Below are positions 1,049 to 40,535 of a stretch of DNA of 44,011 bases, one piece after another. Source of the DNA: a virus. Its lineage: Duplodnaviria; Caudoviricetes. Both the position numbers and the translations under genes were made by a program. The stretch lies in IMG/VR virus record IMGVR_UViG_3300020045_007976, positions 1-44,011 of that record. One strand, written 5' to 3'. The notes beneath the pieces were generated by a model. The model saw only the letters and a list, made by a program, of their open reading frames with translations. It did not search any database and was not told the DNA's origin. Each line of letters opens with the position of its first letter. Position 1 is the first letter of the stretch.

Positions 1049-1486
1049 TTATTTAAGATTAATATTTTCATTTGTTAGCCAAGGCAGAAAAGGAAGTAAT
1101 TGAGTTTGTGCGTCTGATAACGACCGAACTAATAAATACACGCCACCTAAAGCTTCTACTTTTTTTTGTATCTTGATTTGATCTGGTGATTGACTTCCGA
1201 TTGATGTTTTGACTTCAATATTTACACACCGGCCGACAACCCCTTCAATTTTCAAATCTGATATTCCAGAAACCATTCCCGACTTTTTCAATAAATCAAT
1301 TTGCATTGCTATTGAATTTCGAATAGCTGCATGAAATTGTTTTGGTATGGATGCTGGAATATTGAAACCAATACCATTTGGAATGGAATGCACGACAAGA
1401 CTTGGCGAATGATTTGCTAGACAATACGTGTTGTTTATCCAAGTATAGATTTGTTGCTGAATTGCTGTCTCGTTTTCTGTTTTCAT
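1049..1486 (-). CDS. VRR-NUC (PD-(D/E)XK) nuclease
   Basis: E..IQ, G..SG.SDL, IEVKT and QS.DQ motifs; coupled to the helicase. Confidence 0.85.
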   Translation of the reverse strand: MKTENETAIQQQIYTWINNTYCLANHSPSLVVHSIPNGIGFNIPASIPKQFHAAIRNSIAMQIDLLKKSGMVSGISDLKIEGVVGRCVNIEVKTSIGSQSPDQIKIQKKVEALGGVYLLVRSLSDAQTQLLPFLPWLTNENINLK

Positions 1487-3162
1487 TTTGTAGTTATTAC
1501 GGTTATTGGTTTAATTTCTTCTTTTGGGATCTTGTAAAATGTGTCGAGTTTATTTTTCACTACATTCAACAAATTGTCAAACGTTCGCATATTCTTCCGT
1601 TCAAATGATACAGCAAAAGTTTTCATCGGTTTTGCCATTATGCTTTTCAACTTGTCATGAAATTGAGAATCTCCCAAACTTTTCTCGTACATTCCGCGTG
1701 TTACATAGTGATAAATAAAGACGTCGACACAACTATTTATCAAAATCGTATAAGCAAAAGCCAAATCTTTTTCGTTTTTTCGAGTATATTTTACTATTTT
1801 GCCACCATCTGGAAGCGGGTAATCGTCAATTAAAACTGCTACTTCATTGGATAGTTTCTTTTCTCGATTGTAAACTAGTTTTTCAAATCCGCAAACATCA
1901 CATATCAACAAGCTTTTTGGATGGATGTTCCCGCAACCTTCGCATTGAATAGTATTTTCGAGGGCTTCTTTTTTTGGTTTTGGCTTCGAATTTGACCCAA
2001 AGAAATAAGCTTTCCAATCAACGTAATCTTGCCACTTTCCGTGCGCCTCAATATTACCACCTAAATCAATCACTTTGAAACGTTCTTTGTAAATATCGTC
2101 ACACTTTCTGGAACCACGTCCTACCATTTGATGATAAAGAGAAATTGAAGCGGTCGCTCTGTTTAATATGATGCTTTGAAGTGTTGGTTCGTCAAATCCG
2201 GTTGTAAGTATCGAGACGTTGTTCAAGATTGCATCAGGCGTTTCTTTAAACCATTTCAAAATACTTTCGGCACTTTCGCAATCGTTCACACTATCAAATA
2301 ATTTTACATTAGTATATCCGGCATCAATAAATTGATTGTAAGTTGCTAGATTATTTTTCGCACTTGAATTGAAAATCAACGTTTTTTCACCTTTACATAT
2401 TTTTTCATACTGAAGCACAACATTTGCAATTGCTTCTTTTCCAGAAAATTCTTCATCATCGAAATCATTTGTTTTAGCGTCAATCTTCAAATCTTTATGA
2501 TGCACCTTTCCAAAATCATAATTCAAAGGCTGAATTAAACGCCCGCTATCAATTAATTCTTGAATAGGTGTTCCTATAATTATATCCTCGAATATTTCCG
2601 ACAAAGTGAAAGGCCTTGTATATTCAAACATTTCGACATTACAGCAAATTATTGGAGCCTCTGAAATATTCCCGCAACGTGTGCATTTGCAAAATGAAAC
2701 TTTTCTTAATACTGCAGGAGTTGCCGAAACTGCCAAAATCTTTACTCCTGGGAAATATTGAAATATTTCTTCGAATATCAAAATATGAGCTTCATCGCAA
2801 ATAATCAAACCTAAATCTTTAACGAATTCCGAATCTATTTTTAAACGCCTTTTAAGCGTCTCAATCATTGCGCAATAACTGTTTGATAAGTGATTCAATT
2901 TCTTCTTTTTAGAAGTGACCGTTTCAACTGTCATTCCTATTTTACGCAATGTTTCTGTTGATTGTTTAATCAATACTTCACGATGGGCAACTATTAATGC
3001 TTTTGAATTGGTTTTTAAAAACCATTGTTTTGCGATGAAACTAAAGATTGCTGTCTTGCCTTAACCACCGCCTGTCGGTAACTGGTACAACAGGCGGTCA
3101 TTGGTGTTAAAGTGATTAATAATTAAATCAATATCTTTTTGTTGGTCTGGGTATGGTGTCAT
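1483..3162 (-). CDS. SF2 DEAH helicase, full length, with an in-frame TAA at codon 34 inside Walker A
   Basis: The ATG at 3162 overlaps the HNH stop (ATGA) and reads MTPYPDQQ...QLPTGGG*GKTAIF...AHREVLIKQ, in frame with 1483..2973. That ORF carries DEAH, SAT, TGFD, QMVGRG and a C-terminal CxxC. Confidence 0.88.
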
Positions 3163-3689
3163 AAATGTTTCCATGATTTACCCGTTCTTATGTTGCTAAT
3201 ACAAGATTGAGTTACGTTAAATTTTCTAGCTAATTCCAGTTGTTTTGACTTACTTTCTAATATAATTTTTACTTCATTTTCTTTAAGTTTATGAAAATTG
3301 TTTTTAATTCCTTCTCTTGCTTTTCCATTTTGTAAACCCGTATTGTAAGCATGTGTTCTATTTTCGCTTAAAGTATTCCATTCAAGATTTTCAACTATGT
3401 TATTGTTTTTGACTCCATCAATATGATTTACCTGAGGCTTATTTTTTGGGTTTGGTATGAAAGCACTAGCGACTAATCTATGAACAGTTCTAGTGTTTGT
3501 TTTTTTATTTACTTTTAAATTTACTTTTAAGTATCCGTCTTTATCTGGAAGTTTTTTAAGCATAACACTTCTTCTTATCGCTTTACCTCCAGATGGATGA
3601 TTAACTAATCTTTCAATACTTCTAACATTTCCTAAATTTGAAACTTCGTAAGCCTTGAAATTTTCTATTTCTTTCCAAATTTCTTTCAT
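3159..3689 (-). CDS. NUMOD4-HNH homing endonuclease (free-standing)
   Basis: EIWKEI...YEVSNLGNVRS (NUMOD4) and VHRLVA..F...VNHIDG.K.NN..NLEW (HNH). Confidence 0.92.
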   Translation of the reverse strand: MKEIWKEIENFKAYEVSNLGNVRSIERLVNHPSGGKAIRRSVMLKKLPDKDGYLKVNLKVNKKTNTRTVHRLVASAFIPNPKNKPQVNHIDGVKNNNIVENLEWNTLSENRTHAYNTGLQNGKAREGIKNNFHKLKENEVKIILESKSKQLELARKFNVTQSCISNIRTGKSWKHL

Positions 3690-4395: not shown

Positions 4396-5046
4396 TTAAA
4401 ATTTTAATATTTCTAATTCAACATCAATTTGTTTTTGTAATTCGATTGCCTCAGTTTTTGCAATATCAACCCATTGTTGTACTGTTTTAATAACTGGCTT
4501 TGCTTTTGTGCCTAAATTAATTTCGCTGTCTCTAGTAAGCATAAATACAAAAATAGGCTTGTAAATATTCTCTGGCCTCCAACTACAGAAATAATGTTTT
4601 TGTAATTTTGGGTTTACTGTGAAGTAATGCACACATTGATTAATATTATCATTAGGGATATTTCCTAAACGAATGGTTTGTAAATGTCTTTTTGCCCCTG
4701 GGCATTTTATTTCTGCACTTATCGTTTCGCATTCTGAAATGCCATCAGGAGAAATACCGAGCAAAGGAATTTCTTCGCTTTGTAACCATCCGCATTCTAA
4801 TAACTCAACTTCAATATAGGCAGATAAGGCTTTCCTTGCTTCTGGCTCTAATTCTTGGCCTCTTATCATGTCAAATGATTGGTAACTTTCTTGTAAATCA
4901 AATTCCTCACATAGTTCCGATAAAATATCTTCTAGTAATGTGTCTGATTTAATAAACAAGCCTTTTGATAAAGTACCACCTATTTTACCATAGCGCATCT
5001 TGTGCCATTCTTCTGAGTTCTGTTCAATTTCGTAATGTGCTTTCAT
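4396..5046 (-). CDS. YqaJ / lambda-exonuclease-like recombination nuclease
   Basis: Q.SEEW..R.G, RG.ELEP.AR, SPDG and EIKCP motifs. Confidence 0.9.
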   Translation of the reverse strand: MKAHYEIEQNSEEWHKMRYGKIGGTLSKGLFIKSDTLLEDILSELCEEFDLQESYQSFDMIRGQELEPEARKALSAYIEVELLECGWLQSEEIPLLGISPDGISECETISAEIKCPGAKRHLQTIRLGNIPNDNINQCVHYFTVNPKLQKHYFCSWRPENIYKPIFVFMLTRDSEINLGTKAKPVIKTVQQWVDIAKTEAIELQKQIDVELEILKF

Positions 5047-16812: not shown

Positions 16813-16815
16813 TTG

Positions 16816-16888
16816 TGGAAAAGGTTAGATTCGAACTAACAACGCTCAGCTCTTCAAACTGACGCTCTACCAATTGAGCTACATTTCC
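16816..16888 (-). tRNA. tRNA-Phe(GAA)
   Basis: Full cloverleaf: GGAAATG/CTTTTCC, GCTC/GAGC, TCAGT-TTGAAGA-GCTGA, GTTAG-TTCGAAT-CTAAC. Confidence 0.92.
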
Positions 16889-16894
16889 TTTTAG

Positions 16895-16966
16895 CGGTCT
16901 ATGAGAGAATCGAACTCTCATCACAAGCGTGACAAGCTTGCATCCTAACCGTTGAACGAATAGACC
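16895..16966 (-). tRNA. tRNA-Asp(GTC)
   Basis: GGTCTAT/ATAGACC, discriminator G, CAAGC-TTGTCAC-GCTTG, GAGAG-TTCGATT-CTCTC. Confidence 0.93.
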
Positions 16967-40061: not shown

Positions 40062-40535
40062 TTAAATATATTTGTATCTTTTGTTATTTAATATTTCAGA
40101 TATAGTACTTTTTGTAGTACTCATTATTTCAGCAATTTTATATTGAAGAACTCCATCATTTTTTAATGATTTAATTTTCTGAATATCTTCTTCTGAAAAC
40201 TTTCCGTTCCAAAGATTATTACCGTTATTTTTCAATCCTGTTTTATGGGCGTGTATTTGATTTTCAGAATTATTTACCCACTCTAGGTTGATAAGATTAT
40301 TATTTGATTTATTACCATCTTTATGATTAACTTGTTTTTTATCTTTTAATAATGGCAAATATTCGGTAGCTACTAAAACATGAACGTATTTTTGAATTTG
40401 CCTTCCGTTTATAGATAATGTCACTTTTTTATATCCATTTCCATTATCTTGATGCTTCAATCTTAATCCGGTCTTTGAGTTTAAAATAGTTCCATCATTA
40501 CCTACAAAATACTTTGTATCTAAATACCTTCTCAT
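40062..40535 (-). CDS. HNH homing endonuclease
   Basis: VHVLVA..Y...VNHKDG.K.NN..NLEWV..SEN..HA. Confidence 0.9.
   Translation of the reverse strand: MRRYLDTKYFVGNDGTILNSKTGLRLKHQDNGNGYKKVTLSINGRQIQKYVHVLVATEYLPLLKDKKQVNHKDGNKSNNNLINLEWVNNSENQIHAHKTGLKNNGNNLWNGKFSEEDIQKIKSLKNDGVLQYKIAEIMSTTKSTISEILNNKRYKYI

Follow-up and report, generated by a model that had tools for sequence, protein, structure and literature searches.

A six-nucleotide gap in the Walker A motif of a phage helicase, a neighbouring HNH endonuclease and a putative ribosome hop

How can a full-length helicase be made from a gene in which the Walker A motif is interrupted by an in-frame stop codon, and why does an HNH endonuclease gene lie directly beside it? 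Both questions are raised by the stretch of DNA analysed here (the window), a complete virus record of 44,011 nt with terminal repeats. The reading that we favour, with a probability of roughly 0.7, is that the HNH gene, the first 33 codons of the helicase and a 6-nt gap make up a mobile cassette, whereby a programmed ribosome hop over the gap would give a 557-aa helicase.

The endonuclease matches Pfam NUMOD4 (E = 1.9 × 10−12) and HNH_3 (E = 5.4 × 10−7) as well as the PHROG HNH endonuclease (E = 3.4 × 10−54), and its best PDB match is 1u3e, 'HNH homing endonuclease' (E = 1.7 × 10−9), to which residues 5-126 align; the predicted enzyme appears to carry an I-HmuI-like N-terminal half (NUMOD4 and HNH). 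Its stop codon overlaps the helicase ATG at 3162-3160, on the minus strand, by 4 nt (ATGA), and 95 nt separate the helicase stop from the end of the HNH gene. The sequence-only reading had placed a NUMOD4-HNH gene about 95 nt from an insert in the helicase, and this arrangement was confirmed, the HNH frame being intact and the Walker A codons GGT TAA GGC giving Gly-stop-Gly (translation ...LYQLPTGGG*GKTAIF...). The 524-codon remainder of the helicase has no internal stop and matches Pfam ResIII, DEAD and Helicase_C as well as the PHROG DNA helicase (E = 5 × 10−50; Table 1). Elsewhere in the window, a second HNH-like ORF (40062-40535, minus strand; 157 aa, judged from sequence) lies upstream of the terminase genes, and the large terminase has an intact Walker A motif (GGSARSGKT).

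Table 1 Positions of the endonuclease gene, the helicase parts and the predicted hop elements in the window.
Feature	Position	Strand	Basis
Free-standing NUMOD4-HNH endonuclease, 176 aa	3159..3689	-	Pfam, PHROG and PDB matches; intact frame
Helicase 5' segment, 33 codons, ATG to take-off Gly	3064..3162	-	Translation
Stem 5' arm, predicted mRNA	3088..3098	-	11-bp helix in MFE and centroid folds
Stem 3' arm, ends one base before the take-off codon	3067..3077	-	Fold prediction
Predicted take-off codon GGU/GGT (Gly33)	3064..3066	-	Sequence; role inferred
In-frame UAA/TAA stop, first half of the 6-nt gap	3061..3063	-	Translation
Predicted landing codon GGC (Gly), second half of the gap	3058..3060	-	Sequence
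Rest of SF2 (ResIII/DExH) helicase from the Walker A Lys, 524 codons, intact	1483..3057	-	Pfam, PHROG

In the nearest helicases (L204-L207, n = 4, 72-76% identical), with which the window helicase groups (100) on a quick tree, the motif reads LPTGGGKT without interruption; the excess in the window is therefore exactly 6 nt, and it can be drawn either as GGTTAA or as TAAGGC. A 6-nt gap opening with TAA or TGA was found in 16 helicase lineages (14 clusters of gap loci at 90%, plus L415 and L649), and because these lineages are represented by independently assembled contigs, the gap in the window is neither chance nor a private error. Decay to a pseudogene, or an assembly error behind the 6 nt, is barely credible and largely refuted: independent assemblies in three collections and a GenBank phage all contain the gap, the downstream frame is intact in a gene that is single-copy in the complete record, and dN/dS among relatives is far below 1. 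In the L090 lineage, which comprises 34 loci with the gap and 45 sister loci (74-79%) without it, the downstream frame is intact in 33 of the 34, and dN/dS (0.05 downstream and 0.11 upstream of the gap) indicates purifying selection on both sides.

A scan with the exact Gly-TAA-Gly pattern yielded three viral loci, whose helicases are 25-47% identical. When any middle codon was allowed, 120 matches were obtained in the 48 of 64 parts scanned, and all 17 of those with a DExH helicase frame behind them had TAA, never a sense codon. Stop-or-Trp patterns recovered helicases in 23 of 39 viral matches, 3 of 55 genome loci and 23 of 67 metagenome matches (20 flagged and 3 recognised by eye), matches outside helicases being mostly due to chance; the pattern scans covered Gly-stop-Gly or Gly-stop-NNN at fixed spacing and miss other geometries. 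Close relatives of the query protein P0001 came from the genome and metagenome scans, none being present among the 80 viral loci (best full-length match 45%), and blastn of the junction against GenBank phages returned only 23-nt chance matches. No interruption was seen in the helicases examined among 52 tblastn hits, two of them from cultured Bacteroidota phages and one from a Streptococcus phage. On the quick tree, which covers the downstream part of 48 helicases, the 14 rows with the gap are scattered, requiring 10 changes, at least 6 of which are forced by starred branches; compared with shuffles, the rows show neither strong clustering nor strong scatter (33/500 as low). Judged from the sequences, the gap is real, selected and widespread. 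Since each of the three collections was compiled by a different search, the co-occurrence counts given below do not form one unbiased sample.

Several ways of expressing the interrupted frame were considered. Reassignment of the stop codon was rejected, as TAA is a real stop in the window genome, where it closes 35 of 42 hand-picked ORFs; reinitiation past the stop was rejected, no start codon preceding the conserved Lys-Thr; and a Shine-Dalgarno role of GGCGGU or UAAGG was dropped, these motifs not being conserved across variants. Readthrough of UAA, which would make the P-loop two residues longer, is compatible with the in-frame gap of the window but highly improbable, because a sense codon occupies the stop position in 0 of the 17 helicase matches (48/64 parts scanned) and because gaps of 5, 7 or 8 nt could not be restored by readthrough. 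In addition, the post-stop landing codon is CGC or AGC in 15 of the 34 loci of the L090 lineage, where readthrough would give RKT or SKT, with loss of the invariant Gly that precedes the Lys of Walker A. Thus, landing codons that drift from Gly and gaps that are out of frame preclude readthrough as an explanation for the class.

Searches with a sister HNH group (HNH-B) brought out gaps of 5 nt (L447, L524), 7 nt (L448) and 8 nt (L451, L452), and in L450 and L480 a 6-nt gap is placed after Thr. At one site in a single Streptococcus phage lineage, the gap is 7 nt long in L022 and Javan288 and 6 nt in OlisA3, and there is no gap in phiARI0131-1 and phiARI0399. Every short gap opens with an in-frame stop (TAA, TAG or TGA), and skipping it restores the motif. 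With the landing codon left free, all four viral 6-nt gaps outside L090-type lineages land on Gly. In the Thr variants, the take-off and landing codons are poorly matched (ACG/GCT, ACA/TCT, ACG/ATA), which counts against a hop and is not predicted by the gene 60 model. Considering the landing drift, the out-of-frame gaps and the mRNA stem described below, the bypass of the insert that had been proposed from the sequence alone appears to be the best account of the gap. By wobble rules, GGU and GGC are both readable by one tRNA-Gly(GCC). Neither a tRNA-Gly nor a suppressor tRNA was found in the window, which carries genes for tRNA-Phe(GAA) and tRNA-Asp(GTC) at 16815-16966 (minus strand).

The two arms of the predicted mRNA stem (Table 1) lie in a region with a z of −2.84 (0/200 shuffles as stable), and their duplex energy is −21.3 kcal/mol compared with −9.2 kcal/mol for synonymous shuffles (p = 0.0005). 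In a first test, which was post hoc, on the alleles where the stem was first noticed, 14 of the 15 clusters with the gap had a stem at p ≤ 0.05 by synonymous shuffles, compared with 1 of the 34 clusters without it; the median energies were −21.2 and −9.65 kcal/mol, respectively (Mann-Whitney p = 1.3 × 10−7), and GC was no different. The sole gap cluster without a significant stem was L415 (duplex test, p = 0.39). Among held-out loci, the stem was recovered at p ≤ 0.02 in 7 of 7 short-gap helicases; none of the three uninterrupted genes beside HNHs passed the stem test, and three terminases gave p = 0.05, 0.06 and 0.21 (the L017 gap, which is 41 nt long, was entered in the held-out test as 43 nt). 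The stem is present in both GenBank phages with the gap (OlisA3, Javan288) and in neither of the two without it (phiARI0131-1, phiARI0399). Two stem architectures were distinguished, a short hairpin (window, L002, L372, L441, L090, L412) and a long-range helix. In the 11 cases of the latter, pairing holds in 95.5% of cells and compensatory changes are found at 6 of 12 pairs, the covariation exceeding that in 500/500 shuffles and in every slid control (relatedness uncorrected); among the short hairpins, two members are out of register, which weakens that alignment. Where take-off is at Thr, the stem shifts along with the stop. A U-G pair at the stem base, resembling that of a group I P1, was dropped as a candidate feature, both bases being fixed by the protein.

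A stem that abuts the junction would also suit removal of the 5-8 nt from the RNA by a nuclease-ligase or ribozyme guided by this stem, as would the poorly matched landing codons and the NUMOD4-HNH within an apparent intron at a terminase Walker A motif in L458. We regard such removal as very unlikely: an in-frame stop, relevant to the ribosome only, opens all the short gaps, 95 nt is too short for an intron core, the gap ends lack a common splice-like consensus, and an Rfam search of L378, L458, L017 and L495 gave no match. No group I intron or intein core or splicing domain is present at the insertion site, where the insert is 6 nt long.

Because the gap recurs in many unrelated phages, often by a nuclease and nearly always behind a predicted hairpin, a ribosome hop over the gap is very probable. 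On arrival at Gly33 (GGU), the ribosome would have UAA in its A site and presumably pause there; the 11-bp stem, its 3' arm still within the ribosome, would zip up behind it and push it forward; and the peptidyl-tRNA-Gly would re-pair at GGC six bases on, with decoding resuming at AAG to give PTGGGKT. For gene 60, a 5' stem is proposed, in the accessible text of two preprints, to propel the ribosome (bioRxiv 2022.08.31.505936; 2024.12.09.627546); by analogy, the stem in the window may propel the ribosome likewise and may also set the hop distance. If a hairpin behind a stop-stalled ribosome does set the distance, codon matching would be partly dispensable. At the sequence level, the geometry of a stop hop is present, in that matched codons flank the stop, and a hop, by which 9 nt would give one residue, would restore the family motif.

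An endonuclease gene lies directly upstream of the gap gene in 9 of the 16 gap lineages, namely a NUMOD4-HNH in the window, L003, L320/L408, L344, L363, L372/L427, L411 and L441 (in the last, the C-terminal part only, at a contig end) and a GIY-YIG in L002; no nuclease is found upstream of the gap in the other seven (L001, L090, L406, L412, L415, L445, L649), which include the 34-locus L090 lineage. By comparison, neither HNH nor GIY-YIG genes were found within 1.1 kb of gap-less helicases (0/79 loci, with a positive control run); 72 of the 80 loci searched had at least 700 nt of flank, and the single hit was a gap locus, L216 (= L002). Of the 10 closest relatives in the HNH-B group, 9 are followed by an interrupted helicase and the tenth, L453, by an intact one of SNF2-like type. 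When 114 distinct HNH contexts were scanned for a P-loop motif (GK[TS]) within 400 nt, 90 had none and 24 had one; by eye, the P-loop was interrupted in 15 of the 24 (13 distinct cases, three terminases and one +1 break among them) and intact in 3, the others being 1 intron-like case and 5 chance matches. The HNH is directly upstream of an uninterrupted P-loop gene in L023, L453 and L507. The expected co-occurrence of HNH and insert across related helicases thus holds as an association (9/16 vs 0/79, and 9/10 in HNH-B) but not as an obligatory one, 7 of 16 lineages having no nuclease; an arrangement resembling the contrary case named in the sequence-only reading (an HNH with an uninterrupted helicase) does occur, in three HNH genes. 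In L408 (~530-1050), the HNH beside the gap allele has an internal stop, apparently an early stage of decay.

The HNH proteins of L372, L427 and L441, each encoded next to a helicase gene with the gap, share 71-72% identity with that of the window, whereas the helicases of these three are only 51-55% identical to that of the window and the closer L204-L207 lack both HNH and gap. Similarly, HNH-B proteins are 60-85% identical across helicases that are 26-81% identical. These discordant identities uphold the claim of a co-mobile cassette, HNH and gap in all likelihood moving together between distant helicases. In five relatives (L003, L344, L408, L447, L450), a stranded copy of the first helicase codons is located upstream of the HNH, and in L003 it matches the beginning of the gap-less relatives L252 and L271. 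Such stranded starts mark an insertion, and because of them the element is taken to consist of the HNH, a replacement N-terminus and the gap. There is no stranded helicase start in the window, where the 5' segment shows 56-66% amino acid identity to L204-L207 compared with 72-77% downstream (among themselves, L204-L207 are 75-84% identical in the 5' segment); at the nucleotide level, its identity is 0.65-0.67 to L372/L441 versus 0.62-0.65 to L204-L207, that is, no closer to the former pair. The 5' segment of the window helicase likely belongs to the mobile unit. The sequence-only reading had described the unit as the HNH and the 6 nt; it missed the 5' mRNA stem and the inclusion of the first ~33 helicase codons in the mobile unit. 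In OlisA3 (L661, ~990-1020, 6-nt gap) and Javan288 (L664, ~1005-1035, 7-nt gap), which are named Streptococcus phage records with the stem present, the last codons of an L022-like HNH are kept and the rest of the gene is gone, indicating that the nuclease was lost after arrival.

Under the cassette reading, helicase alleles that lack the gap would be nicked by the HNH at or close to the Walker A codons, and during repair the HNH, the new 5' segment and the gap would be copied into the recipient, a transfer shown by the discordant identities and by the stranded starts in relatives; the gap would break the recognition site and so spare the donor. Later, the nuclease would often be lost while the gap and stem persist, a loss that the HNH-end remnants show. 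Immunity to the nuclease, suggested by the MobA analogy and by the position of the gap in conserved codons, is favoured with some reservation. According to the accessible text of PMC3428280, I-HmuI and I-HmuII, the closest enzymes to have been characterised, cut intron-plus and intronless alleles alike, and by this precedent protection by the gap is not a given; the site cut by a free-standing nuclease is often distant from the nuclease gene, as stated in the available part of PMC2988022.

Alternatively, the hop could be real and the gap a regulatory or junction feature that lowers or times helicase output, for example in response to release-factor level, with whatever protection there is provided by the entire replaced 5' segment. 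Regulation has been argued to be the function of the gaps in the Hau3 terminase (accessible part of PMC10732093), and such a role would fit the purifying selection on gap and stem in the nuclease-free L090 lineage (34 loci), the retention of both in OlisA3 and Javan288, which lack a nuclease gene, and the divergence of the 5' segment itself. Nevertheless, this alternative is unlikely: loss of the nuclease with the bypass kept is likewise reported for MobA, again from accessible preprint text (bioRxiv 2022.08.31.505936); exact deletion is hard, so that persistence of the gap needs no benefit; gap-less sister phages are common (45/79 loci of the L090 group); and the gaps occupy the most conserved codons beside differing nucleases (HNH, GIY-YIG).

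Although the proposed cassette would operate in the manner of MobA/gene 60, it falls outside that system, from which it differs in host gene, nuclease, gap size and RNA structure. In the MobA element, as far as the accessible preprint text describes it, the HNH gene overlaps the beginning of an N-terminal segment that is encoded by the element, takes the place of host codons and has the bypassed gap at its end (bioRxiv 10.1101/2022.08.31.505936). The layout, with a free-standing HNH gene overlapping the start of a bypass-bearing ORF, is like that in the window, and gene 60 and the window share a Gly take-off codon followed by a stop, an upstream 5' stem (computed in the window) and one tRNA for take-off and landing (GGU UAA GGC), a feature relaxed in several relatives. 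In MobA as in the present class, the nuclease is often lost while the gap remains. A MobA-like replacement segment is seen in the five relatives with stranded starts, whereas the window shows an identity dip only. The target in the window is the Walker A motif of a helicase (a terminase in others) that stays unsplit, whereas in MobA it is the topoisomerase II large subunit, split in two; the gap is 6 nt and in frame (5-8 nt in relatives) as opposed to 20-50 nt in gene 60-type cases. Gene 60 has a gap stem-loop with the take-off codon on its 5' side, a hairpin absent from the centroid fold of the window, and a KKYK nascent-peptide signal that the 33-aa leader lacks; its 5' stem lies 9 nt upstream, whereas that of the window abuts the take-off codon. 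Finally, the 176-aa NUMOD4-HNH contrasts with the 269-279 aa of MobA.

The nearest short-gap case is the terminase of Streptomyces phage Hau3, for which the accessible text of PMC10732093 describes a 10-nt UUA bypass, a known 7-nt variant and a proposed 5' stem-loop, the gap following Gly at KGWG/KDP with a slow codon in the A site; we read this sequence as a probable Walker A loop. Hau3 differs in that the trigger is a rare UUA sense codon, the gaps are out of frame and a regulatory role is argued; in the same accessible text, an endonuclease is mentioned once and no link to it was seen. Synthetic 'stop hops' were shown as constructs in E. coli, and the 2016 review, in its accessible part, states that no natural in-frame stop hop was known (PMC5009743); compared with these constructs, the hop in the window appears natural, selected and stem-assisted. 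I-HmuI resembles the window HNH in its N-terminal half, with NUMOD4 and HNH in an intact frame (PDB 1u3e), but it is intron-encoded and, according to the accessible text, cuts both alleles (PMC3428280), whereas the window HNH is free-standing. No published description of such a helicase gap-nuclease element was found in a literature search with subscription papers largely outside it, and the term helicase is absent from the main text of the Manning and Atkins preprint.

Terminase genes are also hit, interrupted Walker A motifs having been found in them when searching from the HNH side. The terminase Walker A gaps of L017 (~4490-4540, 41 nt) and L495 (~1860-1900, 39 nt) contain an internal hairpin, are flanked by codons for the same amino acid (ATA/ATA and CGA/CGT, respectively) and each lie just 3' of a NUMOD4-HNH; they appear to be a form nearer to gene 60. 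The terminase of L460 (~760-780) has a 7-nt matched Ser-stop-Ser gap behind an HNH, and in L458 (~1500-2150) a NUMOD4-HNH is followed by intron-like sequence directly before the terminase GSGKS. In L655 (Oenococcus phage phiOE33PA, 2528-2650), L039-L050 and L462-L476, the gene behind the HNH encodes a RadD-like helicase whose Walker A motif is broken by a single base at CCC-U; no stem is present, and a +1 frameshift probably solves the same problem. Terminase-like frames apparently broken just before GKT (L120, L129, L134, L153, L192) are possibly further recoding sites.

To our knowledge, very few cases of natural programmed bypassing have been described. If the proposed reading is true, this would be a natural programmed hop over an in-frame stop and a third general homing strategy alongside introns and inteins, and the MobA/gene 60 idea would be generalised to helicases and terminases. 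Since the length of the gap, the type of stop, the match of the landing codon and the shape of the stem all vary naturally, the class would offer a direct test of whether a 5' stem alone can drive ribosome sliding. Many phage ATPases would be annotated without their Walker A start, for example in OlisA3 and phiOE33PA; the GenBank annotation of the helicase in OlisA3 and Javan288 begins at a later start. In its broadest form, to which we give even odds, the finding would mean that, in phages belonging to several phyla, homing endonucleases have time and again arrived at the smallest possible 'intron', 5-8 Walker A bases skipped by the ribosome over a distance set by the stem.
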